Assembly: GCF_006345805.1 (NCBI RefSeq)
Contig: NC_043015.1
Coordinates: 21,204,001-21,268,000 of the forward strand
Reading direction: 5' to 3'
DNA from: Octopus sinensis
Taxonomy: Eukaryota
DNA: 64,000 nt
The notes beneath the pieces are model-generated. The model had not been told where the DNA came from. It did no database searches and worked only from the letters and a program-made list of their open reading frames with translations. Position numbers and translations under genes: made by a program. Shown here piece after piece: positions 9,730-62,194 of this stretch; the stretch's first letter is position 1, and each line of letters starts with the position of its first letter.

Positions 9730-10519
9730 CACAGATGTGAGAGAGACAATTATATTTCTGCGTGATCAGTTTATGGAACACCGTATTAATGATCGATAAA
9801 AACCATTGAGCTCTACAGTAATCTGTCTCTTCGTTTCGTTTTCAATTTTCAAAAATATTTTTCACACTTCATTCATTTGTAGTTTTAACATTTTAACCAC
9901 TTACCGAAGTTTAAATTCTGCAAATTTACTCAAAGACTTCGCTTCATTTGAATATTTTTCCCTTGTAATTGTTATACTTCATTGTTTGGAAATATTGAGT
10001 CTAACTCTCCCTTCGTATAATGGAGTTTTGTTATTCATATTCGTCTTGCAACGTTATTAAAATGATTGTTGTATAGAAGCAGACAGTGTTGAATTTATAC
10101 TGCCAGCGAGCACACGTATTTGTTATATTTTATTTCAGTGTCATTACCAGTCAACTATAGAATGAATCAGATGATCAACTTGACGATGGATGAGTCTGTG
10201 AACGTCCCTTTGTTCAGTCTGTGACCTTATAAATGTCAATATGCTCCCCATCCTCCGCTTTCTTCTAAACACAATCATTGTCTGGTTTCTCTCCGTTTGC
10301 TAGGCCATGTAAGGGGCACATAATCACTGAAATAGTTACAGATTGTGAGAAAAGAACTATGACAGAACAATCAATCAATGAAGTGATCAGCTGATTCATT
10401 TCCTAATTAATTAGTAATACAATTGATGTGAGACGTAGCCAGTGAGTGTAATTTTATTGGCAATATGATCGTCCCAAAATACAACCATTGAGTGTTTTGC
10501 ATTGCACGTAGGACCATGG

Positions 10520-11704
10520 ACAAAGCTCAAGAGGCCGAGGAAGGGCGAATGGCACCGCGAGTGTCGCGTTGCTCTCAAGCAACTCTGCCGTCCTGGGTCG
10601 ACCTTGAGTGACTTCATCACAATCAAAGCATTCTATAGGGGATTAGTGGAGGGGAGGTACGACGACGAGCTCGGGGCGAACCTGGACGTCGACGAGGAGT
10701 ACCTGACCCGCCTGTTCGGGACGACTTTCGGGCTAGGGCCCATGGACAACTTCTAGAGATCCCTGGCCTGGCAGTGCTACCGAGAAGCGCTACCCGTTCG
10801 GGATAAACTCTACAGACACGGCTCGAGAAACACGGGGCCGACCTGCCCGAGATGCGTTCAGAGCGACGAAACCGTTCTGCACGCACTCGTGCAGTGTCCA
10901 AAAATTTCCGACCTGTGGGCTTATGTCGAACAACTGCTGTCACGTGTGGGACGAGTCGGTTTATCAGCTGAGTCTATTGTCAATATTGTCACGCCTCCTT
11001 CCTTCAAACGGGAAGGAAGAGCTATTTTCATCATCCTTGTGGCTATGGCGAAAGAATGTATCTGGTGGACGCGTCTGAAAGGATTGGAGACAAACACTTT
11101 CCTCTCTGGCCAATCTCTCATCAACTTCTTCAAGTACCACTTGAAAAGGAAAGTGAGAGTAGAGAGGCAAGTTTTGTCTAGCGAATGTTTAAAAAAAAGA
11201 TGGGTGAATATAGCAAGGATGGCACGTATGAATGACGAAGCCACCTTGAGCATAATCCTATGAACCCAGAAATTGAAAACAGAGGGTTAGCCACTTGCAA
11301 ACAAATGTGGTAACATATAACAATATTGACCAAGGTTACCGTGGTCTTTTTCGTAGGCTTTTCTTCCCACGGATAAACCTTACTTGCTTTCCCCTTTACA
11401 CCATACATCATAACACTGTGATACACGATCACTATTGATCGTTTTTTTCCTCTTCCCATTCTTTTTCCCCTTTTTTCTTCTTTTTTTCATTTCTCTTTTC
11501 TTTTGTTCCTTTTCCTTTTCTCTTTTTTTTTCTTTATTTTTGTTCTCTTTCCCCTTTTACGATCCCTATTGATCGGAAACCTACGCCACCTTTTTTTTAT
11601 TTCTTTTGTTTTTTTGTTTTTTGCTTTTTTCATCCACCAAAAGAAAAGCTCTACCTTGTAACTTGTCCCATCTGTGTGCAGCCCTGTGTGGCCAATAAAG
11701 AAAC
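10520..11704 (+). mobile_element. 5'-truncated Tx1/L1-clade LINE, copy 1 (ORF2 C-terminal zf-RVT plus 3' UTR)
   Basis: LPVRDKLYRHG...TCPRCVQSDETVLHALVQCP zinc-finger motif; premature TAG at 10754-10756; ORF ends 11263; T-rich 3' UTR ending aataaagaaac. The 5' boundary is approximate. Confidence 0.9.
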
Positions 11705-12139
11705 TTATCTTCCAAATTAGAACGTTACCACAAAAACAACAAACGTTTACAAAGTGTTCTGATTGAATATGCTGATTAAATATATGTTACAGTTACATAT
11801 CAATTGTAGTGAAGTATATACGATACATTCATCACGCGTGTATTACTGCTACTTATTCATCAGACTATACACACACATACACACACACATACACGCGTGC
11901 ACACATACTTTCTTAATCCAAATACTTTGTTAGTTCGCCGGTAGGGTACGTAATGGAGCGGTGGCGATGACTACTTCAAAGCGTCGGATGCTGAAATACA
12001 CAGACAGACGAGACAACTAACTTCAAATGCCATTCAGGAGCAATGGGCATCCAAGTTTCACCATGTTGGCGGCTTATAACATCACGCACCCGAACCAGAC
12101 TGTAGACGAACTTAATCGCCAGTCAATGACTATATTCTT

Positions 12140-12349
12140 TTGCTTGCTTCAGTCATTTGACTGCGGCCATGCTGGAGCACCGCCTTTAGTCGAACAATTC
12201 GACCCCGGACTTATTCTTTGTAAGACTAGTACTTATTCTATCGGAAAACTTTTGCCGAACCGCTAATATTACGGGGACGTAAACACACCAAAAACATTTG
12301 TAAAACGATGGTAGGAGGACAAACACAAACACACAAACATACAAACACT

Positions 12350-12384
<35 letters not shown>

Positions 12385-12547
12385 TACGACGGGCTTCTTC
12401 AGTTTCCGTCTACCAAATCCACTCACAAGGCTTTGGTGGCCTGAGGCTACGGTAGAAGACACTTCTCCAAGGTGCCACGCAGTGGGACTGAACCCGGGAG
12501 CTTGTGGTTGGTAAGCAAGCGATTTCCTCATAGCCACCCCTGCGCCT
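12140..12547 (-). mobile_element. SINE family A, near full length
   Basis: Complete tail (cagtcatttgactgcggccatgctggagcaccgcc), internal (TA)n, and tRNA-like head ending gccacccctgcgcc. Confidence 0.9.
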
Positions 12548-12953
12548 ATATAGCGTAAAAAAATTGCTGGTCTGCCCTGTTGGCACATACATAAGAATAT
12601 ATTCAAATGTAGATTAGAAGAGCAGCGCTAGTATTGTAAACACTACCGACCAAACATATAGAATGTGTAAGATTTGTATGTATGGAGGTAGCTTTCGATT
12701 TAGCACGGTGGGTATGACTACTTGAAAGCACCAAGTGTGTGTGTGCTTGTATATATATATATATAGACCACAAGCAACTAAACCTTTTTTCTATTTTCTC
12801 TCCGTTTATTTCTGTCTTCCTTTCTGTCGAAGAGCGTAGGCTCGAAACGTAAGAGACTTTCTCACTTCCCGAGCATTAAACTAATACATCTCTTTGTTGT
12901 TTACACACTCGTCTTCTGTTTCTGTTTTTGTTTTTTAAATTCTCACTATATAT

Positions 12954-12995
<42 letters not shown>

Positions 12996-13560
12996 ATACG
13001 ACGGGCTTCTTTCAGTTTCCGTCTACCAAATCCACTCACAAGGCTTTGGTGGCCTGAGGCTACGGTAGAAGACACTTCTCCAAGGTGCCACGCAGTGGGA
13101 CTGAACCCGGGAGCTTGTGGTTGGTAAGCAAGCGATTTCCTCATAGCCACCCCTGCGCCTATATAGCGTAAAAAAATTGCTGGTCTGCCCTGTTGGCACA
13201 TACATAAGAATATATTCAAATGTAGATTAGAAGAGCAGCGCTAGTATTGTAAACACTACCGACCAAACATATAGAATGTGTAAGATTTGTATGTATGGAG
13301 GTAGCTTTCGATTTAGCACGGTGGGTATGACTACTTGAAAGCACCAAGTGTGTGTGTGTGCTTGTATATATATATATAGACCACAAGCAACTAAACCTTT
13401 TTTCTATTTTCTCTCCGTTTATTTCTGTCTTCCTTTCTGTCGAAGAGCGTAGGCTCGAAACGTAAGAGACTTTCTCACTTCCCGAGCATTAAACTAATAC
13501 ATCTCTTTGTTGTTTACACACTCGTCTTCTGTTTCTGTTTTTGTTTTTTAAATTCTCACT
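12385..13560. repeat. Near-identical tandem duplication, about 610-bp period (12385-12948 / 12996-13560)
   Basis: Both units read SINE head, unique sequence, then hammerhead-like fragment, and differ only by small indels; junctions lie in (TA)n. Confidence 0.95.
12821..12854 (+). ncRNA. Variant minimal hammerhead-like motif (second copy at 13434-13467)
   Basis: ttt-CTGTCGA-A-GAGC gtag GCTC-GAAACGTA-aga: perfect stem II, palindromic ACGT helix III, GTA site; core reads CUGUCGA instead of CUGANGA. Confidence 0.5.
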
Positions 13561-13585
13561 ATATATATATATATATATATATATA

Positions 13586-20620: not shown

Positions 20621-21221
20621 TATATATACATATATATATATAGTTCGTATTTGCATTTGGTTTGCAAGGTTCTTTGTGTGAATTCGTGTGTTGAAAGAAA
20701 TACTATTGATTTTGGGGAGGGTCATTATGCAGGTAATAATAAACACACGCACTGGTTCGGTCCTTTATTGTTATTGTTCTATATTGTTCGTGTTGTTATT
20801 CCATTTTTGTTTGTCAAATAATTATTTCATCGCATTGCTGTAGTCTCTTCAGTGACACGTCTCTCTACTTCCATTTCATTTAAACTTATATTCCAGCGTT
20901 GGAATTTGTACGAGATCTGTCCGAGATAAGTATGTGACTTTATGCATGTCAGTATGTGTGTGCGTTTATACGTATAAACACACACACACACACGTGCTCA
21001 TCACGGTCACATCCCAGTTCTGGTACATAAGTTCAAATGAAATAGCATTAGAGAGACATGACACTGAAGATACTGCAACAATGCGACGAAATGATTAGTT
21101 GACACAAAAATAGAAATAACAACACGAACACTACTGAACAAAAACAATAAAGTATCGAACCACTGTGTGTGTTTGTTATTACCGACATAATGTCGCTCCA
21201 GAGATCAAAAGAATATATATA

Positions 21222-26350: not shown

Positions 26351-27441
26351 GCACCGCGAGTGTCGCGTTGCTCTCAAGCAACTCTGCCGTCCTGGGTCGA
26401 CCTTAAGTGACTTCAACACAACCAAAGCATTCTATAGGGGTTTAGTGGAGGGGAGGTACGACGACGAGCTCGGGGCGAACCTGGACGTCGACGAGGAGTA
26501 CCTGACCCGCCTGTTCGGGACGACTTTCGGGCCAGGGCCCATGGACAACTTCCAGAGATCCCTGGCCTGGCAGTGCTACCGAGAAGCGCTACCCGTTCGG
26601 GATAAGCTCTACAGACACGGCTCGAGAAACACGGGGCCGACCTGCCCGAGATGCGGTCAGAGCGACGAAACCGTTCTGCACGCACTCGTTCAGTGTCCAA
26701 CAATTTCCGACCTGTGGGCTTATGTCGAACAACTGCTGTCACGTGTGGGACGAGTCGGTTTATCAGCTGAGTCTATCGTCAATATTGTCACGCCTCCTTC
26801 CTTCAAACGGGAAGGCAGAGCTATTTTCATCATCCTTGTGGCTATGGCGAAAAAATGTATCTGGTGGACGCGTCTGAAAGGATTGGAGACAAACACTTTC
26901 CTCTCTGGTCAATCTCTCATCAACTTCTTCAAGTACCACTTGAAAAGGAAAGTGAGAGTAGAGAGGCAAGTTTTGTCTAGCGAATGTTTTAAAAAAAGAA
27001 TGTAGCAAGAATGGCACGTATGAATGACGAAGCCACCTTGAGCATAGTCCTATGAACCCAGAAATCGAAAACAGAGAGTTGCTTATTTGCAAAAAAAAAA
27101 AAAAAAAAAAAAAAATATAAAATGTGACTTCATTGACCGAGGTTACCGTGGTCTTTTCCGTAGGCTTTTCTTTCCACGGGTAAACCTCACCTGTCCTCCC
27201 CTTTACACTTCATATTGACATTTCTGTGATAACGATCCCTATTGATCAATTTTTTTTCCTCTCCCCCTTTTTTTTTTTTTTAACCCCCCCCTTTTTTTTG
27301 TCCTCTTTCTCTCCTTTTACGATCCCTTTTGATCGAAACTCCCCCTTCCTTTTTTTTTTTTTTTTTAAACCTTCAAAAGAAAAGCTCTACCTTGTAATTT
27401 GTTCTATCTGTGTGCAGCCCTGTGTGGCTAATAAAGAAACA

Positions 27442-30949: not shown

Positions 30950-31970
30950 AGAGTTTAGCGGCATTTCGCCCGTCTTTACGCTCTGAGCACAAATTCCGCC
31001 GAGGTCGACTTTGCCTTTCATCCTTTCGAGGTCAATAATGTAAATACCAGTTGAGCAGTGAGGCCTATGCAATCAATTTGTCCCCTTTCCCAAACTCTCT
31101 GTCATTGTGCACCAAATTCGAAACTATTAATTAGAAGACGGTATTTCGTCCTTGTACGTCATGAGATTAAATTCTGCAGAAGTCGACTTGTCTTTCATCC
31201 ACCCGGAGTCTGTAAAATAAGTGCCAGTTAGCACTGGGGTGCATATAATTGATTTACCCCCTCCTCTAAATTTCTGGCTTTGCGCCCAACATTTGAGACC
31301 AAACATTAGTTACATTATTTACATTTGTCGGATATTTGTCCTCATCTTGTTTGTTGTTAACAAAACGTTTCAGTTGGTATACCCTCCAGTCTTCAACAAC
31401 CTTGGGGGAAGGCTGGCGGGTATATCAGCCGAAACGTTGTGTTAACAATAAACAAGATGAGGACAAATATCTGTCAAATGTAAATAATGTACATAATTCC
31501 TCATCTCTTAAATATAGAACTGTGTTTGAAACCATTAGTAACCAGGAGAGGAGACGAGCTGACAGAATCGTTAACATACTGGACGAGATGCTTAGCGATA
31601 GGTCGTTCAAATACCGCCGAAGTCAATTTGTTCTTCATCCTGTGCGGGACGGTGAAATAAGCACCTGTTAGACGCCGGGGTCAATGTAATCGACGTTCCT
31701 GCTCCTTGTAAGATATTAGGACTTGTGTCTTTAACTGAAAGAACTGTTAACGGAGAGAAAGGATTCGAGCTGGTAGAATCGTCTCCATGTCGGAATAGAT
31801 GTTTAGCGGTATTTCGTTCATTTTTACGTTCTGATTTCAAATTACGTTGAGGTCAACTTTGCTTCTAATCCGTTCAAGATCAATGTCACTACCAGTCAAA
31901 CACGGGTGAATGCAATCGATTTGCTCTACCAACCAAGATTGCTGATCATGGACCAAAATAAGAAATAATT
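30950..31970 (+). mobile_element. Cluster of at least 4 degenerate family C SINE copies
   Basis: Recurrent gaggtcgactttgcctttcatcc core at about 31000, 31180, 31620 and 31850. Confidence 0.75.
31311..31525. mobile_element. Foldback (hairpin) element from the family of 39783-40097, with hammerhead halves and a 3' tail
   Basis: Inverted arms of about 84 bp (31311-31394 vs about 31408-31491), about 13-nt spacer; right arm GAAGGCTG...CAGCC-GAAACGTT-gtgtt; unpaired tail cataattcctcatctcttaaatatagaac. Confidence 0.85.
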
Positions 31971-33612: not shown

Positions 33613-33799
33613 CTCTTTACTCCTTTACTCTTTTACTTGTTCCAGTTATTTGATTGTGGCCATGCTGGAGCTACGCCTTTAGTTGAACGAATCGACCTGA
33701 GGACTTATTCTTTGTAAGCCTAGTTCTTATTCTATCGGTAGCTTTTGCCAAACCGCTAAGTTACGGGGACGTAAACACACGAGCATCGGTTGTCAAGCG

Positions 33800-33830
<31 letters not shown>

Positions 33831-33979
33831 CATATATACGACGGGCTTCTTTCATTTTCCGTCTACCAAATCCACCCACAAGGCTTTGGTCGGCCCGAGG
33901 CTATAGCAGAAGACACTTGCCCAAGGTGACACGCATTTGGACTGAACCCGGAACCATGTGGTTCGTAAGCAAGCTACTT
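33613..33979 (-). mobile_element. SINE family A, interrupted; the head continues at 36040-36074
   Basis: Breaks after gtaagcaagctactt and resumes as gtaaacaagctactt-accacacagccactcc at 36040. Confidence 0.9.
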
Positions 33980-36039
33980 TATTTCATAAAATTTGTCATC
34001 GTAGACAGTACAAAGAGTGCGTAGCTTTGCGGGCTGGACAAACACATTAATGAATGAAAATGAAATAGAATGAATAAATGAGAGACGAAACCCAACACCC
34101 GCCGATTGAATTTTTCTCGAAAACATATTTTCTTTTTTTAAAAATCAATATGAGGTTTCAAACCTCTTACATGAAGGAGGCACTAAAGCCTCTTACTTAA
34201 CATGTTTCTTTTTTAAACACACAATTGAGGTTATAAACCACTACAAATAATACAATAAGATGAGGTGTCAAACCCTATAACGAGGGTCTTTCATCTCCTA
34301 CTCTTCGATATATCCATCGATATATTCATCATTATCTTCAATGCCGCCTGAGTTCCTGTATCTAGCCATTTCCCTTGCCTCACTCATGTAGGACATGTAA
34401 GTCATGTAAGGGCCACCCGGCCATATGCGACATTCCTCCCCAAATCCTTTAAGCCTTTCCCACAAGGGAAACCTTATGACCTCTACAGCTATCTGCGGAG
34501 GCCATTCGGGGTCCCGTGTGAAGGGCATATCTACTGTCTCTTTATGTTCTGCTACTATTTTTTCCACCTTCCCGCCCTTATAGAAAAAGATAATTAATTC
34601 ATCATCTTTAAGGGTAGGGGTCGTTTCTTCCACCGTGGGTGGCAAAACTTCGGGACATGCAGACGGCACTTCATCTCCCCGCTGAGATGACCAGTTCTTC
34701 TTCCTTCATTTTTTTCTTTTCTTCTTGACTTCGGGAGAGTGGAGCTCTTCCACTTTGTCCGGAGACTCTCCCCTCCTCCCGAAGCCTTAGGTTCCTTCGG
34801 CGGGCAACTATTGTTGCCCGCCTTCTTCCTTTTTAATGCTTTCTGAGTTGAGGAGGCTGAAGCCTCCTCGACCACGTCTACCTCTCCCTTTGATCGGGTA
34901 GGGGAAGTGGCATCTAGTGACTGTTCCAGGATCTTACCATGGTCCTGGGGGCAGTCCTTTTTAATGTGGCCTGGCTGCAGGCACGAGTGACACATGGGGG
35001 GACGTCCCTCAAGTATCACCGGATACCTGCAGCCAGCCATTTTCAAGAAATCTGGAAAAACCAGATCTGTTGCGGCCGATGAGGTCCACAGGGTCAAAAT
35101 CACTTTTGACCCTTCCTAATCGAATGCCGGCAATACCCTTACATTTAAGAACCTGGGCCCGCCATCCCCCAGTCCCCCTCGGATGGTATCTTCAATCCAA
35201 TCCGCTTCGGTGCCTGGGGGTAACCCACATGCCTAGACTCTTATTAATTTCCTCCCGCAATATGACGAGAGGAACAGAATTTCCGTGTCTTCTAAAGCTG
35301 ACTCGCAAACTGGCGAGCCTTTTCCCCGTTGTCAAACAGCAACCATACGGTTGCATGTTTGACACCACAGGATATCTATTTTACAGAGGACAAATAGTCT
35401 TTAAGTCCATTTTTATAACTTGTTTTGGGAAGACGGTGATGGAATTAAGAACTTTAGAATAAGTTCTAAGCCCCATCGTCTTCTCCTCCATATCTTTTAA
35501 CCACTGCTTAGGCGGGTTAATTTCCCATTCTAAAACAGAGTTCTTTTTAAGTTCCTTCTCTGCCATGTCAAAAAACAGTTCAAAAGTAGTTCAAAAGACA
35601 GTCTGCCAAAAAATTAAACCGAATATAAATAAAACAAAATAAAAGAGGTGGAAAGGGAACCGAAATTAAAGTAATGAAAAGAACGAACCAACATTTAGAA
35701 AGAAAGATAAAATAGAAGAAGGGAAAAGTAAAAGAAAAACCTCACAAATAGCACCGACAGGGAATCATTTGTATAATACTCCAAAAAAGTAATCCAAATA
35801 GCTTATTCTTGAAGTACTCCAATTCTGAAAAATTGTACTTTTTCTGGCGAGATACGCCCACTAGAATTTACAAAAAGAATTTTCAAGCAAAAATTCTCAA
35901 TTCACCGTTACGGTGATGAGAACCAGTAATTGACAATTTTTCTTTTTGTTCTTTTTTCTATTCACGGAGCCCCCCAAAAACTCACATCTTATCACTGTAA
36001 CAGTCCAGACCAGCTAGTGTTGCATTCTGGTAACCGGAA
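33980..36039 (-). mobile_element. ORF1-only (HAL1-like) non-autonomous L1/Tx1-type retrotransposon, apparently full length
   Basis: 15-bp TSD with 1 mismatch (33965-33979 / 36040-36054); about 470-bp 5' UTR; disrupted ORF from 35566; minus-strand 3' end ...atgaaataaa; no EN or RT sequence seen. Confidence 0.8.
34298..35566 (-). pseudogene. Disrupted L1/Tx1 ORF1-like (Gag-like) protein with CCHC zinc knuckle
   Basis: Pieces MAEKELKK..., YCGRKLIRV*ACGLPP, YPVILEGRPPMCHSCLQPGHIKKDC (CX2CX4HX4C), then low-complexity and acidic C-terminal segments; stops and frameshifts present. Confidence 0.8.
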
Positions 36040-36507
36040 GTAAACAAGCTACTTACCACACAGCCACTCCTACGGATATAATAGCTTTTACATTAATATG
36101 GTATGATAGCGTCAAAAATAAAAAGGAATTACCATTAATCGGGTAATTTAGTCGAAATCACTTACATCTAATCTCCTGTTGATATCCTTAAACCGGAGAC
36201 TGGTTAAGCCAACCACATTCTTTAAAACTTACTTTCAGATTCGATCCCTTTCCTCAATCGTCTGAGCAATTGTCATCCGTGACCGCATGTTTGAACTCTG
36301 ACTAGTGAGTGGAAATTGGCAGAACGACGTGCTAGAGAAATCAATGGAACGGAATGTAACCATACAGAGAATTGGATGCTATGTATAGCAGGCGAAAAAC
36401 CAGATAGATGTGTTTATTTAGTCATACAAAGGACCTCACATATATGCGCATTATGTATATGTGTATACATATACATGTATGTGTATGTATGTATATATAT
36501 ATCTATA

Positions 36508-36557: not shown

Positions 36558-36950
36558 ATGGCTGTGTGGTAAGTAGCTTGCTTACCAACCACATGGTTCT
36601 GGGTTCAGTCCCACTGCGTGGCACCTTGGGCAAGTGACTTCTACTATAGCTTCGGGCCGACCAAAGTCTTGTGAGTGGATTTGGTAGATGGAAACTGAAA
36701 GAAGCCTGTCGTATATATGTATATGTATACATGCATATGTGTGTGTGCGCCTCTGTATGTGCTTCTGTGTGTGTTCCCCCCACCCACATCGCTTGACAAC
36801 CGATGCTGGTGTGTGTACGTCCCCGTAAGCTAGCGGTTCGGCAAAATATACCGATAGAATAGGCACTAGGCTATGTGGTCGATTTGCTCGACTAAAGGCG
36901 GTGCTGCAGCATGGCCGCAGTCAAATGACTGAAACAAGTAAAAGAGTAAA
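36558..36950 (+). mobile_element. SINE family A, near full length
   Basis: tggctgtgtggtaagtagcttgc...gggttcagtccc...ccttgggcaagt...gactgaaacaagtaaaagag. Confidence 0.9.
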
Positions 36951-37107
36951 TGAGTATATATACATACATACATAGATACATACATACATACACACACACA
37001 CATACACACACATATATACACATACACATACGTAATATGTATGTGCGATTCTTTGTATGAATGAATGTATACCTCGGTCTGGTTTATATGTATATATCTA
37101 AAATATG

Positions 37108-37312
37108 CCGGAGTAAACACATAAATGTGAAACAAGGTGGAAAAAAAGAGTACTGAAATACCAGTGGTAGAGTAATATGCTTTATTTAAAGCAGCAGAAA
37201 ATTCAACAAAACCTGTTTCTCTGAGTTTCCCGTTTCCGTTCGTCGGACGACGAACGGAAACGGGAAACTCTGAGTAACAGGTTTTGTTGAACTTTCTGCT
37301 GCTTAAATAAAG
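37108..37312. mobile_element. 205-bp foldback element with hammerhead-like arms and a 15-bp TSD
   Basis: Direct repeat tatatctaaaatatg at 37093-37107 and 37313-37327; inverted arms of about 70 bp (37175-37245 / 37248-37317) with a 2-nt loop. Confidence 0.85.
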
Positions 37313-37504
37313 TATATCTAAAATATGTACAGTTTGTGACCAAGTCTTTTTACAAATAGTTTTGCTAACGATGAAATGTGTTTAAATCAATATTCTAAAC
37401 TTCTTGACTTAAGAGTTTAATCTTTTTACAGGATAAAATATGTGTCTGCCACACAGGTATTAATTTCAATTTACTGTTTTCGTTTGCGCGTGGCTGTATG
37501 TATG

Positions 37505-37589: not shown

Positions 37590-38940
37590 TAAGAAATACC
37601 AAAAAGGATCAGTAAAGAATTCATTACTAAATCAATTGAATTCATCCTACATAATAACCACTTCATGTTTGACAATACATTTTACCGTCAAAAATCCGGA
37701 ATTGCTATGGGTACAAGGGCAGCACCAGTCATTGCAAACCTAACAATGGGCTACCTGGAAATAATAATTTACCAGGAATCTTTATTAATCTTTGGAAACC
37801 CCCTCTCTCAATACACAAAAGAGAATTGGAAACGATTCCTGGACGATTGTTTTATACTCTGGAATGAAAACACAGATAAACTCCTAAAATTAAAAAACCT
37901 ATTGAACAGCATAAACCCAAATATACAGTTCACAATGGAATACAACCAAAAGGAGCTCCCATTCTTGGATATACTAATTAAAAAAATTAACCTTAAAATA
38001 GAAACAGACATTTTTTACAAAGCCACAGACGCCAAACAATACCTTCTTTTATTCATGCCACCCAAGACACACTAAAACAAACATCCCCTTCAACCTTGCA
38101 AGAAGGATATGCACAATAGTGTCAGAACAAAATACCAGGAACTTTAGACTGCAAGAACTCAAAAACACCCTAATTGACAGACATTACCCAGCTCAACTCA
38201 TAGAGGATGGGATCAGACGTGCAACAGAAATCAACATAGAAACTTTAAGAAAAGTTCAACACAACAACACACCTTCCCCGAAAATACTACCTTAAATATC
38301 TACATACAACCCCAGAAACAAAGAAGCCTTCACCATCATCACCCAGAATTTACCAATACTTCAGAAGGACCCCAAATTAAAGGAAATTCTAAACATACAC
38401 CAAATCATTAAAAGCTACAAACAACCTAAATCATTTAAAAAGATTCTCACAAAGGCAAAATTGTTTTCTGAAATTACGGATGCAAAAGTAAAAAGATGTG
38501 GTAGACCAAACTGTGCAACATGTCCAAACCTGTTAGAAGGATCAGAATTCCTCTTCAAAGAGGGACAGAAATTCAAGATCAAATCTAACTTTACTTGTGC
38601 CTCTGAAAACATAATTTATGTCATAAAATGCTCGGGCTGCCACCAAGACTACGTGGGATCCACGGGACTATCACTCAGACGTAGATGCACACTGCATCGA
38701 CAACAGATTGCGTTCCCAGAATACAGAATGATACCTTTTAGTGAGCACATTGAGAAATGCGCAAAGCAACTACTACCACAATTCTTAATCTTTCCATTTT
38801 ACCAATGTACTATCGGATCATCAACACAAATTAGACTAAACAAGGAAACATTCTTCATTGAAAAGTACAAGCCCAGACTTAACCATTCCAACATACTGAT
38901 ACAGAGAAATTCACACCAAGGGAAATGCAAAAAAGTTTAA
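37590..38940 (+). pseudogene. 5'-truncated Penelope-like element: RT plus GIY-YIG endonuclease (Neptune-like)
   Basis: FYRQKSGIAMGTRAAP, WKRFLDDCF, LPFLDI, DIFYKATD; frameshift near 38050; stop 38293-38295; CGRPNCATC zinc finger; NIIYVIKCSGCHQDYVGST. Confidence 0.95.
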
Positions 38941-44951: not shown

Positions 44952-45214
44952 TGTGTGCGTGCGTGCGTTTGTCGCATAATTGATTTGCAGAAAATAAAGA
45001 CAGTTATAAAACGCTTCTAAGTGCGAAAAACGAACTCGGATAAAGTAGGAATCGAGTCGCTAAGTCTATTAACATTGATTTTATTATTTAGTCTACCGTA
45101 AGTTAGTACATATCAAGGCATGTATAAAAGGAAGGAAGCTGTAAATGAAATTGATCTCTCAACCCTTTGAATCCTCATCTACGCTGTTAAACAGCAGCGA
45201 TATATTTTTTTGAA

Positions 45215-46056
45215 TATTGCACCCGGAAGATGCAAAAGTAAGCACCCGAATGCTTTTGTGTTAACGGTTGAAAATTACAATGTTTCTGCCAGTTAGTGAG
45301 GCGTAAATATAAAACTATGTGGCCACCATCTTTTGCGTCTTCCGGGGGTATAATCAAAAGTAATCGCACTCGAAGAAGTGTACACGTCGGTTCAGAAGGT
45401 TAAGACAGAAGGTAATTAATTTAATGATAGCTGATGTCAACTCAGAGAGAAGAATCAGGGAGATAAAGGAACTGTGAGATGCTATATGATGCTACGTTGT
45501 ATAAAGACAGCGGATTAAAAAATAATCTTAGAGCAAAATTATATGTGAGTTTTCAAGGAATATAACGCATGAATATTAATATGGTTTCAAATTTTGCACA
45601 AAGCGAGCAGTTTTGCACAAAGTCGACAATATTAACCCCAGTGAATGACTGATGCTTATTTCATCGAAAGAATGAAAAGTATATTCGAACCCAGAGAAAT
45701 TTGAACTCATAACTTGAACATGACAGTGTGCCGCGTTTTATAATAGAGTTGATACTGTAGACCTCAGTACTTGGCGGGGTGCAACGGAAGTCAGAGTTGA
45801 CCTCCGCAGCATCACAATCAAGAAAGTGAGAAAAAAGAAACAGATAATGGTTTAAAATTTTGCCACAATGGCTGCAATTTTGAGTGGGTGGGGTATGAGT
45901 CGATTAGATCGATACAATTGCTCCACAGGTACATATTTCAGGGATCCCAATAGTAAAAAATGCCATGTCGACCTCGTTGGAATTTGAACGTAAAGACTGA
46001 CGAAATGTCGCTGAGCATTTTGCCTGCCGTGCTAACGATTCTGCTAGCTCACCGCC
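45215..46056. repeat. Diverged local segmental duplication, copy 1 (partner 50802-51662)
   Basis: Colinear similarity from tattgcacccggaa through the embedded family C SINE fragments. Confidence 0.9.
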
Positions 46057-49073: not shown

Positions 49074-50801
49074 CGGGGGGGTGTTTGTATTGTGCATTTC
49101 TGTTTTCTATTAATGCTTATATATGTACACATGCAAACATAAATGGATACACATATTTATACATACGTATATATTATCATATATGTGTATATGAATACAC
49201 ATACAAGCATATATAAATACAAGCATACATACATTGATACATATGTATATAGTTACTCATCAGCGTTCATATATATACATATATGTATACACACAAAGTC
49301 ATTAAATCGTAGTAGACGGTTTGAAATGCCAAGAGATTTTTTAATTATATGAAAACATACTCAAACAAACACATACCCACACACAAACACACGTACACAC
49401 CTATACACAGAAACAATCACATTCAGCATGCACACTCTTAGATGTAATATATATATCATATGTCGTCGAAACTTCGAAGTTACTCTTAATAAAAATATCA
49501 AAATTATTAACCTATATTTTTAGCTTTCATTTAATATTCGCCGTTTTATGAGCTTGTGACCACATATTTTGTTAGATTTATATGTATTCATCTACGAATA
49601 TATGTATGTATATATGTATATATATATATATATATATATGTAAGCATGGATGCCTCTACCTACGTATACATGTATTTGTGTACGAATATATTTGTGTATA
49701 TATGTATATATACATGTATCTATTTATATGTGTATACATACGATTGTATATAATTCTATATATATATGTTTGTATATATATATATATATATATATGCATA
49801 TATAAATGTTATGTATATATATATATATAAATATATGTTTATATATATGTAATGCATATACGTATGTGTATATAACTATATGTACGTATATATATTATAG
49901 ATTTACATATAATATGCACAAACGCATACATACATATATTTGCATGTGTATGTAACTGTCAATGCATAAATACACATATGCATATATTTATATGTGTATA
50001 TATTTTATTACGAGTGTTCATTGTTCTTTGAATCACCAGAAAGAGAATTGAATGTTTCTTACTTACGAAAATAAAATGCAAGTGACTGGAACATATTACA
50101 TCTACTTTAAGATAGTCGTGATGAAATATATTACGAACATATTATGTGCCTTAATGGTATAAATGCGATGGCGGCTAATTAGCAGGATCGATAATGTTGT
50201 GGTCAATATATTGTCTTTAGTTACGTCCCTTTGTGTTCATTATTGTTACGTAACAATTCTGTTACAAAATGTCAGAATACTATTTCTGGAAGCCATTTCA
50301 TCTTGTACTATGTAGACAAATACAGGTGTATCAATTACTATTCAATAAAACTTCTTGATTTATTAAGATAATCTCTGCCTCTAGAGAATATATTATAATT
50401 ACCAAATGGCAATTAAGATCAGGACCAATATAGAAATCAAAACTTCCCAAAAGCTGACATACCATTAAGGGAGAAGACAGATTTAGTGTCTTGAGATAAG
50501 TGTTTTTATCTCCATAACACTCTTTAGAACCAGGGTTATCTTCCCTTCTCTCAATTGGAGATTGTCTTTTGTATTTGGCAATTATGAATTACTCCTCCGG
50601 CGTAAGTCAAATTTAATTTGAAGCACGAATTTATATTGTATGTTATTTGATATGCCTGTATTTATCTATGATGTTCAAATACATGTCATTGGACACTTAG
50701 GCATTTCTCTTTGCTCTCCAAAAACAAAAATCTTAATCCAATAGTAACCGGTTATGGTCGACTTTCGGCGTCAAAATTGACTTCTGCAGAACTCATTTGA
50801 T

Positions 50802-51662
50802 TATTGCACCCGGAATATGCAACAACAAGCGCCCAAATGCTTTTGTGTTTACGGTTGAAAATTACAATGTTTCTCCCAGTTAGTGAGGCGTAAATATAAA
50901 AATTATGTGGCCACACTCTTTTACGTCTTCCGGGGGTATAATCAAAAGTAATCGCACTTGAAAAGCGTACACGTCGGTTCAGAAGTTTAAGACGTAAGGT
51001 AATTAATTTAATGATAGCTGATGTCAACTCAGAGAGAAGAATCCGGGAGATAAAGGAACTGTGAGTTGCTATATGATGCTACGTTGTATAAAGACAGCGC
51101 ATTAAAAAAAAAATCTAAGAGCAAATTTATATGTGAATTTTCAAGGAATATAACGCATGAATGTTAATATGGTTTCAAATTTTGCACAAAGCGAGCAGTT
51201 TTGTGGGAGGGAGTAAGTCGACAGCATCAATCCCAGTGAATGACTGATATTTATTTTAACGAAAGAATGAAAGGTAAATTTGAACCCGGGGAGGTTTGAA
51301 CTCATAACGTGAATATGGACGGTATTCCGCGTTTTATAATTAAAGGGTTTAGTTGATACTGTAGACCCCAGTAGTTGGCGGGGTGGAATGAAAGTCAGAG
51401 TTGACTTCCACGGCATCACAATCTCGAAATTAACAAAAAAACAAATGATGGTTTAAAATTTGCCACAATGGCTGCAATTTTGTATGATGGAGGATGAGTC
51501 GATTACTACAATACCAGTGCTCAACTGGTACATATTTTGTCGAACCCAAAAGGATAAAGGGCAAAGTCAACCTCGCTGGAGTTTGAATTCAGAACGTAAA
51601 GACGGACGATATGCTGCCGAGTATTTTGTCCGTCGAGGTAACGATTCTGCCAGCTCGCCGCC
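50802..51662. repeat. Diverged local segmental duplication, copy 2
   Basis: See 45215-46056. Confidence 0.9.
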
Positions 51663-54609
51663 GCGAAGTCTGCAGCACTAATCACTAAGCCTGAAAAAAG
51701 CCGCGGAAAAACGTCTTGAGAATTTACTTAAATCAGATAATAGGTGATGATCAGGTAGATTAGCACCGCCACGACTAACAAACCAATGAAATATATGAAT
51801 GGATGTTACGCCAAGATTATATTTCTATAGCTGATGAGTCTCGAGTAAGCAGTAGTAAAGTTTAGTATAAACAATTCCAGGCGACTCCAACGCAAGATAT
51901 TCAATGTGAGCGTTCCAAATGTTCTATTTTATGTGCTGAGGTCTTACTGAGCTATCCTGCTGTTTCGGAAATAATTGAGTTGGCTCCTGAAGTTCGTCAT
52001 AACTGTAGTACTGGTATCTAATAATCGTTGTCCTATGTCAAATTTTAACCCTCTTGTCATACATATTATCAATAACAAAGGATATGTTTGTGTGTGTAGA
52101 GTAAGCGAAACAGCCCAGTTGCCTTCTTTAGATATCGTTTCATTTCGTCACTAGAATCAAGTACATGAATTTTTCCGAGGTAACTTACATTTGTTTTCAG
52201 AGGTGAGACATGTATCAGTTGTATACTATACTCCATGGTGAACTAAACTACAATACAAGTGCTTTGACTTAACAAAAGAAAAATGAAGTCCATGAAACTA
52301 AAACCAGACATAAAGCGAGACATTATTAATGGCTTCAAATTTTGGCACAATACCAGCGGTTTTGCGGTGTTTTATGGGGTATGCAGTGAACCAAGTCCTT
52401 AGTTTCGAGTCTGGTACTTACGCTTTTGGAAGCATTTGTCGAACTGCTAAGTTTAGACGACGTAAATAAGCCAGAACCGGTTGTTAATGGGTGGGTGACA
52501 AACACGATACAAACACAAAGACACACACATATACACACACACAAACACATACCCACACACTCGCACCCACAAACATGAGAGGCATCTTCACTGTTCTCTT
52601 CATTGAAGTTCACTGACAAGACATCGATCGGTCCGGGGATGGAGCAGAAAACACTTTCCAAACTTTCGGTACAATGGAACTAAGCATTGGACCACATAGT
52701 TGCAAAGCGGTCCATCAACTCCCAGTGAAGATAAAAAAGATAGCGGGGTTTATCGAAACTTAATGGCGTCTTGAACATTTGTATTTTGGTTCAGCCGATC
52801 GTGGTCCCCATCTGAACACAGTCGAGTTTATACAGAGTGAAACACAGAAAGAGAGAAAAAGAATCGACCCCTACTACCCAAACCTGAAAAGATATTTTAC
52901 GTTTCAATTAGGAAATAAATGAAAGTCAAAGTTAAATTCTGCGAGATTTGAAGTGAGAGCAAACAAACCCAGAACGTGGAATCTCTCCGACAGTTTAACA
53001 TCTCTTCCAACTCGCCGCCATCAGAACTATAAACCATCCAATAACAAGGAAATATATATATAGAATAACGATCAACTGGCAGCACAAGTTATTTTGTGTT
53101 GATTTCATTTAGATAATATTATTTTAACTAAATTATTTTGCCATAAAATGGCGTCGATAAAAAACATATATTGCGCATTTGCCCAGGGAGAAAAGAAACC
53201 AATATAAAGATAACACATGAAAATTGAATATTGGTGCTAATAATTGTTGGACGTCCAATAATTTATACATCATGTCTCGTACGTATGGGAAAAAATTACC
53301 AAAACAAAACATTTTTCTTGTATTTGCTTAAGTCAACAGTTTTACTAAGGAATTCTTATCGTCGGTTTCATTGGACTCAGTATTTGAATAATGAATTTAC
53401 TTTCATTCTCTTTGGAAAGGTCACGGAGAAAGAAGTCAATCCTTTTCATAACGTAACTAAATAAATGTCAAAGGATTAGCCTTAAATCCGTCGAAATTTT
53501 ACAGGCCTCCATTAACCTGGAGATTATCCCGTTCGCCACTGAGTGTATAAGAACAAAAATACGAAGTATTCATTTTGATTTGAGTGGGGACAGAGCAAAG
53601 TTAAATGAATTGTTGCGCTATAGACTGGAAGGCAGTTTTTGTTGGAATCGAAACCACTAGTATTTAAGCGAGAGTCCCAGGACCTTACCACATAGCCATG
53701 ACCGTTCACAACAAACAGTGTGGCAAATCTAACAGGTTAACTAGTAGAAGACGGTCTTTGAGCTTGAAACATGTGTCCACACATGTTCGTAATTATCATC
53801 TTATGTCCAGACTGTAATCTCTCCTTAACAGCATGACAACTTTGAATAAATCTTGAAACTTGAGATCGTCTCTACTCTTTATATAAAACCGTTCACAATT
53901 TCCATTTGGTAATTCTTCAAGAAGTGGAGATAATTTGAATAAATCAATAATTTTTGTTGTATGGTATTCGATATACTTGTATTTGTCTATGTGTAGACGA
54001 CTGGCTCTCTGTTACTTTATCTGTTTGCAATCATTTTTTATGTTTCACTTCGCATTTACTCTGACGTAACATAGCAATGATGCAGGATTTATCTCATGCC
54101 TTCTAATATAGTTCCATAGACATCTAGAATACATTAGAATGCAATCGAAGATGTATTTTAGGCATTTTATTATCTTGTTTCATTTTTTTGCATAGTGTAT
54201 CGAAGAACGCAATACATGCCATGCTTTTTTAGTAAAATATTTATTTCAGTGATATTTGAGGGAGATTTATTTGTCCTTGCCAGCAGATCTGAAGACCTCG
54301 TATATATTGAGTATCGATGTTGGCCCCTCGAGAAACTGTCCACGGTTCAATAACGCCAGGAAACGTGGAATTTCCTTAGAATTTTTCTCTTTGACCTCCT
54401 CTCTGCCTGCCTATCTGTCTGTCTGTCTGCTTGTCGGTCTGTCTTTGTGTATGTCTGTCTGTCTGTCTGTCTGTCTATCTGTGTCTCCTTTTTATCCCTC
54501 GGTGTTCCTCGTCTGAATTTCTTTATCTCACATGCCTTCTTTCCACCCTTTCACTTGTCTCTGTCTCTCCCTCTCTCCTACTCCCCTGACTAATAATCTT
54601 TTCTCTTTT

Positions 54610-54976
54610 CTTTGTTTTAGTCATTGACTGCGGCCATGCTGGTGCACCATCTTGAAGAACTCCAATACTTATATATTTAAAGCCTGGCATGTATTCTATC
54701 GGAATCTTCGCCGTACTGCAAGGCTACGGAGATGTAAACACACCAACGCCGGCTGTCAAGCGGTGATGAGGGAAAACACAGACACAAACACACTCTACAC
54801 ACACACACACACACACACACAATAGGCTTCTTTCAGTTTTCGTCTACCAAATCTACTCACAAGACATAGGTTGGTCCGAGCTTGTAGTATCAGACACATG
54901 CCCAGTGGGGCCACAATGTAGGCTTGAACCAAGAACCATGTGGTTGGGAAGCAAGTGTCTACTTACGCCTGTGCCT
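54610..54976 (-). mobile_element. SINE family A
   Basis: agtcattgactgcggccatgctgg...ggcttctttcagttttcgtctacc...accatgtggttgggaagcaag. Confidence 0.85.
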
Positions 54977-55071: not shown

Positions 55072-55412
55072 GTAGACGTGGCTGTATGGTAAGCAGCTTA
55101 ATTATCAGCCGCATGGTTCCCGCATGGTTCAGTCCTACAGCGTGACACCTTGGGCAAGTATCTTCTACTATAACCTTGGGCCGATCAAATATGTATATGT
55201 ATATGTTTGTGTGTCTGCGTTTGTACTCACCACCATCGCTTGACAACTGGTGTTGATGTGTTTACGTCCCCGTAAATTAGCGGTCGGCAAAAGATACCGA
55301 TAGGATAAGTACTAGGCTTACAAAGACTAAGTCCTGGGGTCGATTTGTTCGACTTTAGATGCTGCACCAGTATGGCCGCAGTGAAATGAGTGAAACAAGT
55401 AAAAAGATAAAA
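55072..55412 (+). mobile_element. SINE family A
   Basis: gtggctgtatggtaagcagctt...ggttcagtcc...ccttgggcaagt...gaaacaagtaaaaag. Confidence 0.85.
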
Positions 55413-57129: not shown

Positions 57130-57132
<3 letters not shown>

Positions 57133-58018
57133 CCGAGAAGCGCTACCCGTTCGGGATAAGCTCTACAGACACGGCTCGAGAAACACGGGGCCGACCTGCC
57201 CGAGATGCGGTCAGAGCGACGAAACCGTTCTGCACGCACTCGTTCAGTGTCCAACAATTTCCGACCTGTGGGCTTATGTCGAACAACTGCTGTCACGTGT
57301 GGGACGAGTCGGTTTATCAGCTGAGTCTATCGTCAATATTGTCACGCCTCCTTCCTTCAAACGGGAAGGAAGAGCTATTTTCATCATCCTTGTGGCTATG
57401 GCGAAAGAATGTATCTGGTGGACGCGTCTGAAAGGATTGGAGACAAACACTTTCCTCTCTGGTCAATCTCTCATCAACTTCTTCAAGTACCACTTGAAAA
57501 GGAAAGTGAGAGTAGAGAGGCAAGTTTTGTCTAGCGAATGTTTTAAAAAAAGATGGGTGAATGTAGCAAGAATGGCACGTATGAATGACGAAGCCACCTT
57601 GAGCATAGTCCTATGAACCCAGAAATCGAAAACAGAGAGTTGCTTATTTGCAAAAAAAAAAAAAAAAAAAAAAGAATATAAAAGGTGACTTCATTGACCG
57701 AGGTTACCGTGGTCTTTTCCGCAGGCTTTTCTTTCCACGGGTAAACCTCACCTGTCCTCCCCTTACACTTCATATTGACATTTCTGTGATAACGATCCCT
57801 ATTGATCATTTTTTTTCCTCTCCCCCTCTTTTTTTTTTTTTTTTTTTTTTTTAACCCCCCTTATTTTTGTCCTCTTTCTCTCCTTTTACGATCCCTTTTG
57901 ATCGAACCTCCCCCTTCCTTTTTTTTTTTTTTTTTTTTTTTAATACCTTCAAAAGAAAAGCTCTACCTTGTAATTTGTTCTATCTGTGTGCAGCCCTGTG
58001 TGGCTAATAAAGAAACAT
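57130..58018 (+). mobile_element. 5'-truncated Tx1/L1-clade LINE, copy 3, within (ATCT)n/(GTCT)n
   Basis: Uninterrupted C-terminal ORF to 57616 (zf-RVT); nearly identical to copy 2, including the 3' UTR. Confidence 0.92.
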
Positions 58019-61217: not shown

Positions 61218-61700
61218 TTTGGTTGGCAACTAGGTTCCCGCCGTTTTTTCTAAATTTTGGAATTTATTGCATTTTTAAACTTTGGAATCTATTTTTTTCG
61301 AGAATTCTATTTTTGAATCATTTTGGAATCTATTTTCTTCTTTTTTTCCCTAGTTAATTTTGGTTAATTTTTATTTTCAGATCATTAAAGTGGAATGTCA
61401 AGTTAAAAACGAGCCTTTTCGACACCTCCTTCTTTTTGCTTTTAATCAAGGTTCTAAGGCCGCAAAAGCTGCTCGCGACATTTGTGCTGTGTATGGAGAG
61501 GGTGCCATAGCTGAAAGAACCGCTCGCGATTCGTGTGCCAAGTTCAAAAATGGAAATGTTGACGTCAAAGATACACCTCGTTCTAGCCGTCCAGTTGAGT
61601 TCGAAAATTCTCGTCAAACGACAAGGGAACTGGCAGAGAAAATGAAATGCTCTCACACTGCTATAGAGAAGCATCTTCACTCGATGGGAACGGTTCAGAA
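61218..61700 (+). mobile_element. Mariner transposon 5' part (TIR plus N-terminal HTH of transposase)
   Basis: TA-flanked TIR-like tttggttggcaactagg; FRHLLLFAFNQGSKAAKAARDICAVYGEGAIAERTAR...FKNG...DTPRSSRP; internally deleted. Confidence 0.9.
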
Positions 61701-62194
61701 TTTTAAAGTTTATCGAAAAATATTTCTTTTGTTTTGCAAAGTATTCTTTCGACATCTGTTTCACTAACGCGTACTTAATTTTACAATACTTATAATTATC
61801 GAAACAAAATTTGAACACGCAAGCGTCACACCTTCGGAGACAATTTGAAATAGAAATTAAAAATTCAAACTGGTTCTTAAATGAATTAAATGTCTAGGGG
61901 AATATACGGAATCATTGAGATGAAAACACAAAATGAATGAAAAATTAGAAAAAATGAAAAAATATAAGACATGAACAAATGAGTGTGAATATAAGTTTTG
62001 AAGCTGTGCGTTGAAATATATATAATAGGTAGCTATTTGCAGCTGAACATTTGATTATTTCTCAGACAAAAGCAATGCTAGTTGCTTTAACAAATATAAA
62101 CGATATATGGGGCTGCGTTCTTAAAGGTTACGAAGGAATGACAAGAGATGAAGGAATTATGAAAATAAAGAACATATTTATGTATCTCATTATG

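Follow-up and report, generated by a model that had tools for sequence, protein, structure and literature searches.

The minus strand of a 64-kb stretch of the Octopus sinensis genome (64,000 nucleotides, hereafter the window) carries an insert of about 2.06 kb (2060 bp, 33980-36039) that interrupts the head of a SINE and contains an ORF1-like gene with no ORF2. The question raised by this locus is whether a retrotransposon family encoding only ORF1 produced the copy or whether it is a one-off. A preliminary description had read the insert as a non-autonomous Tx1/L1 derivative. That reading is supported by a TSD-bounded ORF1-only copy, an L1-type 5′ terminus and an octopus homolog. Its implication of a self-propagating family meets a single copy, and searches of the 64-kb window with blastn, tblastn and nhmmer found no second one. 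On balance, we favor a non-autonomous retrotransposon family of L1/Tx1 type that encodes ORF1 only, with the insert as a full-length, now dead copy. Its source would then be a multi-copy family lacking ORF2 and not a one-off transcript. The features of the locus are listed in Table 1.

Table 1. Features of the insert and of the interrupted SINE (window coordinates).
Feature	Position	Strand	Observation
Host SINE head, 5′ part	36055..36075 (upstream end approximate)	-	Aligns with intact SINE copies; resumes directly past the TSD
TSD copy, element 5′ side	36040..36054	-	14/15 identical to 33965-33979
L1-type 5′ terminus ACTTCCGGTT	36032..36041	-	Single occurrence on both strands of the window
5′ UTR	35567..36039	-	473 nt, 33% GC, 42% T; upstream of the ATG matching the homolog start
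Broken ORF1-like gene	34706..35566	-	286 codons from ATG to TGA; tblastn with the LOC115225585 protein, E 8e-73
ORF1-like CX2CX4HX4C knuckle	about 34990-34945	-	zf-CCHC match
ORF1-like gene, other parts			Probable RRM region; low-complexity basic tail
Stop-free frame	34298..34705	-	135 codons, in frame past the TGA; coding-like composition, no known family
AT-rich tail	33980..34297	-	318 nt; either a 3′ UTR or a parental inter-ORF spacer
Terminal AATAAA	33978..33983	-	Last two As common to the TSD
TSD copy, element 3′ side	33965..33979	-	Equals the single 15-mer of the intact SINE at 36571-36585
Host SINE remainder	33620..33964	-	68-91% identical to 7-8 other window copies

Insertion site and ends of the insert

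The insert and its host SINE have the same orientation. In an intact SINE copy, the flanking 15-mer is present once (36571-36585) and is followed by the same continuation as that found beyond the right TSD copy. When the 2.2-kb segment was shuffled, 37 of 300 versions contained a 15-mer pair of 14/15 quality at some position, and significance from the repeat alone was therefore rejected. The insertion into the SINE head with a target-site duplication is nevertheless real, because the SINE is split and its 15-mer, single in the intact copy, is doubled around the insert. The preliminary description had seen a 15-bp TSD splitting a SINE. The split and the duplication stand, with the SINE context as the proof and the two copies identical at 14 of 15 positions. 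It had also held that the TSD fixes both ends, which is not true to the base: the 5′ motif starts at 36041, and the last As of the AATAAA (33979-33978) lie inside the left copy. The copy at 36040-36054 shares its last 2 nt with the 5′ motif and has its one mismatch 5 nt from the junction. Because of these two features, the TSD measures 10-15 bp, depending on the assignment of the overlaps with the 5′ motif and the AATAAA. The non-microsatellite parts of the SINE cover 3.8% of the window, so a chance insertion into a SINE is plausible.

The SINE is about 400 bp long and abundant, with about ten copies in the window (e.g., 12130-12554, 36559-36954, 54598-54966, and 55072-55404) and an internal (CA)n/(TA)n tract. 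Its head is presumably tRNA-like, judging from A/B-box patterns. Rfam and ARAGORN gave no match across the window, and hence no Rfam or tRNA call for the SINE, which was matched to no named octopus SINE. Part of a SINE is also included in a head-to-tail duplication of 626 bp (12351-12973 and 12965-13585, 98.7% identical), which is either a recent tandem duplication or an assembly artefact. Another repeat of about 870 bp is present in two copies (45209-46056 and 50796-51662, 84% identical), and its end recurs at several other places in the window. Three self-complementary regions of 190-510 bp and 70-84% (20716-21199, 31305-31497, and 49774-50003) are possibly MITE-like.

At its 5′ end, the insert begins with ACTTCCGGTT, which starts 2 nt inside the right TSD copy. 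The chance of finding this 10-mer within 5 nt of the junction is about 7e-6. The 5′-terminal consensus of L1 is GGACTTCCGGTT in zebrafish and GACTTCCGGTG in lizard clade 1 (PMC5381506). The conserved terminus GACTTCCGG is present in the insert; it has been shown for zebrafish and lizard clade 1 L1s only, and it is a supportive character rather than a formal defining feature of the L1 superfamily (L1 and Tx1). With ACTTCCGGTT at the junction, the insert is full-length at its 5′ end. A motif common to fish and lizard L1s suggests an old promoter end, either conserved or convergent, and the 5′ UTR presumably contains an internal pol II promoter.

The leader and the tail have 33-34% GC, versus 47-48% in the coding part. 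The only sense-strand AATAAA of the insert is located at the 3′ junction and runs directly into the TSD with no poly(A). In vertebrate L1s, AATAAA is followed by a terminal poly(A) (PMC5381506), and a short poly(A) tail may have been lost later from the insert. The two UTRs (5′ and 3′) and the terminal AATAAA of the preliminary description were thus recovered as a T-rich leader of 473 nt, a tail of 318 nt and a sole AATAAA at the 3′ junction. Within the tail lie three 13-nt motifs that are related to one another, plus a looser fourth (34152-34274, minus strand), some of them capable of forming short hairpins. Its overall folding is not unusual (z -1.29; 10 of 100 shuffles fold as well).

The ORF1-like gene and the frame that follows it

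The closest relative of the ORF1-like gene is Octopus sinensis LOC115225585, an uncharacterized protein of 281 aa. It is colinear with the insert from its first residues to the basic C-terminus, with 158 of 272 residues identical. The alignment runs from the ATG at 35566 to 34709 in four pieces (28/42, 22/44, 100/168, and 8/18 identical), and the end of LOC115225585 lies no more than one codon from the in-frame TGA (34708-34706). The two are about 42% divergent. Conservation is higher in the core (78/117 identical) than in the tail (22/51; Fisher p 0.006), which argues for selection on ORF1 in the source lineages, with a functional protein kept during divergence. In LOC115225585, Phe replaces the first knuckle Cys, and this gene may itself be a decaying copy.

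The gene in the insert is broken. TAG stops are found at 35378, 35235, and 35118 in addition to the TGA, and the frame changes near 35410, 35297, and 34775, in or beside short homopolymer runs. Assembly error was considered for the frameshifts and rejected: the three nonsense codons represent real decay, and the Tx1-like ORF2 fragments of the window are stop-free over 162-216 codons (n=3). Three stops fit a neutral decay of 5-10%, from which 2.3-4.6 are expected. With the rate of 0.0036 per Myr used in PMC13282606, this decay would date very roughly to 15-25 Myr.

The knuckle was detected in a 173-codon frame (35115-34597), whose zf-CCHC match of 20.8 bits is exactly at the Pfam cut-off. The CCHC-knuckle ORF1-like gene of the preliminary description is therefore borne out by this match and by the octopus homolog, but as a gene broken by three stops and three frameshifts. 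When the same frame was compared with 1.84 billion representatives, 45 matches were found at E<=0.001. Only one of the 45, LOC115225585 (E 1.8e-37), is strong and represents a close relative; the others are mostly to the knuckle region. Five distant matches in the protein alignment were not treated as proven Tx1 ORF1s. A word search with LOC115225585 returned only itself among 684 candidates, but this type of search is insensitive and says little on copy number. Word-indexed protein searches with the ORF middle gave 0 of 710 and 0 of 153 candidates, and they carry little weight, as the search with 153 candidates missed the true homolog. Prokaryotic genomes contained no relative (0 of 601 pattern matches), as expected. 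A literature search found no paper that mentions LOC115225585.

RRM/CCHC-type ORF1 proteins are classified as Type I and, in non-mammalian animals, are associated with the Tx1 clade (PMC5203782). The RRM region of the insert is a lead. The Atlas look-alikes of LOC115225585 are zf-CCHC clusters (0.93-0.91), one of them with 10% RRM_1 members, and clusters combining ZCCHC3-RBD with CCHC (0.90 and 0.89). ZCCHC3 is linked to Tx1, although this link was not found in print in the literature searched. Pfam searches of the insert fragments and of LOC115225585 gave no RRM match. The best Atlas structure match reached TM 0.46/0.49, which is below TM 0.5. Single-sequence structure predictions had pLDDT values of 38 and 40 and were unusable; a PDB fold search with our own model (pLDDT 38) found no match at E<=0.001, and in PDB sequence searches the best E was 0.73, for LOC115225585.

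The frame of 135 codons downstream of the TGA has 47% GC and is purine-rich like ORF1, versus 33-34% GC in the flanks. Only 2 of 5000 shuffles are as open, a figure that is optimistic because the interval was chosen after the frame had been seen. The frame has no match in Pfam, Atlas or PDB sequences, and its one hit is a PHROG of unknown function (E 0.054). The start of an endonuclease was also considered for this frame and was ruled out by a scan for EN/RT motifs. The frame is either a C-terminal domain of ORF1 or a separate module. One reading that fits is an ORF1 originally of about 422 codons that broke in both copies at one and the same A-rich site. A rough count (7 lesions, 3 of 420 codons) puts the chance that the two breaks coincide at random at about 5%, or more at a hot spot. 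Another reading that fits is that the TGA is a feature of the family; the second part would then be reached when ribosomes read through the stop, slip, or start again at an overlapping ATG, whose own frame closes after 12 codons in this copy. The 135-codon frame has no lesions versus 2.8 expected (P 0.06), which decides nothing between the two.

A more specific proposal, which we consider doubtful, is that octopods carry an amplified ORF2-less L1/Tx1-type family with a genuine ORF1 stop near codon 286, shared with LOC115225585, and a downstream module of about 135 codons of no known family; SINE heads would be a possible preferred target. In this proposal, translation would reach the second module by reading through the stop, by slipping -1 on the preceding A-run, or by re-initiating at the overlapping ATG. 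If true, the family would represent a non-autonomous LINE of two modules in which second place is taken by something other than EN/RT.

Origin of an insert without ORF2

No EN/RT domain was found in the insert, in agreement with the preliminary description. Four fragments of the insert gave no EN/RT match in Pfam. A scan of three frames with six EN/RT patterns produced a single loose match (N..G[LI]), which lies close to the end of the 135-codon frame, and no EN remnant in any frame. From the last stop, 318 nt remain to the end of the insert.

Such a structure could also arise sporadically from an autonomous L1/Tx1 element if its transcript met an AATAAA in the inter-ORF spacer, was polyadenylated there too early, and was then reverse-transcribed in trans. 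Premature polyadenylation of L1 RNA is discussed in PMC5381506. According to the same source, L1 inter-ORF spacers are 257-1,032 bp long in fish, frog, and some lizard L1s, and those of fish have about 34% GC and T-rich repeats. The tail of the insert, with 318 nt, 34% GC, and short repeats, resembles such a spacer, and the window has no second copy. However, no remnant of EN is present in any frame, and RNAs without ORF2 in cis should insert rarely, so that an amplified family is the likelier source of an ORF1-only insert. We infer that amplified families supply most ORF1-only copies, and we regard early polyadenylation as unlikely, though as a serious competitor. The ORF1-only family is further favored by two ends that look native and by the existence of a diverged relative under selection.

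Native-looking ends would also be expected if an autonomous element had inserted and later lost ORF2 by internal deletion, with its own 3′ end kept. Three 5′-truncated Tx1-like copies of one family are present in the window (26351-27440, 57130-58016, and about 10515-11704, all on the plus strand); they contain zf-RVT and are 84-92% identical. All three end in AATAAAGAAAC, without poly(A). Two of them are flanked on both sides by a (TATC)n microsatellite, which suggests a target preference; the third is not so flanked. Preference for a target sequence is common in the Tx1 clade (PMC4494074). The preliminary description had noticed that the 3′ end of the insert loosely echoes that of these copies. 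The echo is at chance level: the last 70 nt of the insert score no better than 518, 593, and 563 of 2000 shuffles against the three copies, and the 9-of-10 match is the best local alignment of these 70 nt against the Tx1 ends. With the whole tail, 41-296 of 500 shuffles score equally. Over tail lengths of 70, 100, 150, and 320 nt and the whole tail, the count was never lower than 93 of 2000 or 41 of 500, and the 3′-end link to the window Tx1 copies was rejected. A GAGGTT/AACCTC stem common to both tails was noticed afterwards and was not counted. The Tx1 tail folds better than its shuffles (0 of 100), partly from A and T runs.

For the internal deletion, the mismatch to one window family leaves room, since L1-Tx1 elements are abundant in Octopus vulgaris, with 80 families (PMC13282606). 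Nevertheless, all of ORF2 would have had to go without a trace, and the tail is uniform in composition and has no Tx1 3′-UTR homology. We give this course of events very little probability.

We assign an equally slim probability to a host-gene origin. In that case a gene related to LOC115225585 would have been domesticated from an ORF1, as L1TD1 was, and the insert would be its processed pseudogene. In favor of this origin, the annotation of a 20-Mb contig gives LOC115225585 as a single gene, conservation is biased to the core, and both coding regions end at about the same codon. However, the first knuckle cysteine of LOC115225585 is F, as in a decaying copy. An identity of 58% is too distant for the parent of a copy that has decayed by 5-10%, and the junction begins with the L1 terminus motif. 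If LOC115225585 belongs to the family, a ACTTCCGG start would be expected about 470 nt upstream. LOC115225585 may be followed by an ORF2, and this counts against a family encoding ORF1 only.

In the favored case of an ORF1-only family, pol II would transcribe the source element, starting at the element's own 5′ end, and the ORF1 protein would coat the element RNA in cis. An autonomous L1/Tx1 family would supply the endonuclease and reverse transcriptase in trans. The plus strand would be nicked first, at 5′-ACTT/AC-3′. L1 endonucleases cut TT/A, and the implied nick resembles this site. The exposed TT would prime reverse transcription on the A-rich end of the RNA. Synthesis of the cDNA would proceed as far as the 5′ end, and a second, staggered nick would produce the 10-15-bp duplication. 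The copy would then decay neutrally by about 5-10%. No mobilizing partner LINE was identified, because the insert has no 3′ homology to the Tx1 family of the window. Other transposable elements of the window include a Penelope-like element on the plus strand (37593-38940), in which a weak GIY-YIG frame comes after a broken RT (weak RVT_1) and a near-perfect palindrome of 144 bp lies upstream (37175-37317), and a fragment of a Mariner-type transposase (61354-61767, plus strand; HTH_48 E 1.3e-16).

Relation to known ORF1-only elements

HAL1 elements are ORF1-only derivatives of L1 that have arisen several times in mammals (PMC5753468). Like HAL1, the insert is a TSD-flanked retrotransposed copy that consists of a 5′ UTR, ORF1 only, and a 3′ UTR, with no ORF2 and with EN/RT needed in trans. 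The mammalian ORF1 is a Transposase_22 protein with coiled-coil, RRM, and CTD (PMC5203782), whereas the ORF1 of the insert has a CCHC knuckle. Searches of the insert fragments and of LOC115225585 gave no Transposase_22 match at E<=1. The HAL1 3′ end has a poly(A) tail after AATAAA; the insert, in contrast, lacks poly(A), has a mollusc as its host and is known from one copy. By analogy, the insert probably works like HAL1. It is no HAL1 member, because its ORF1 is of a different type and its family standing is based on a single window copy.

The insert also resembles Tx1-clade and diverse L1 elements with Type I ORF1 in several respects: the knuckle, the look-alike clusters of RRM and ZCCHC3 type, the TSD, the AATAAA end and the L1-type 5′ terminus. 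The difference is that the insert has no ORF2 and hence no RT phylogeny for an assignment to the clade. With the ORF2/3′-UTR copies of the Tx1-like family in the window, it has no detectable sequence in common. CCHC-type ORF1 without ORF2 is also seen in HeT-A and other telomeric elements of Drosophila. About 40% of Drosophila telomeric TE families are ORF1-only, having kept a CCHC-type ORF1 and lost ORF2 (PMC13534243). The HeT-A group, however, belongs to the Jockey clade and forms telomere-targeted head-to-tail arrays, while the insert is interstitial and TSD-flanked with an L1-type 5′ end.

In the literature searched, including PMC13282606 and its supplement as far as they were covered, ORF1-only L1/Tx1 elements are not reported from molluscs; Repbase, Dfam or the library deposited with that paper may include one. 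Elements without RT are probably filed under 'unknown' repeats, which make up 15% of the O. vulgaris assembly in PMC13282606. As a one-off truncated copy, the insert would be an ordinary fossil. We consider it probably a new variant of the half-LINE strategy, with its family status resting on one copy. If the family exists, the ORF1-only strategy would extend beyond mammalian L1 and Drosophila telomeric elements to an RRM/CCHC-type L1/Tx1 lineage in a mollusc, and this would be a further independent case of an ORF1 required in cis and an ORF2 that can be supplied from elsewhere.
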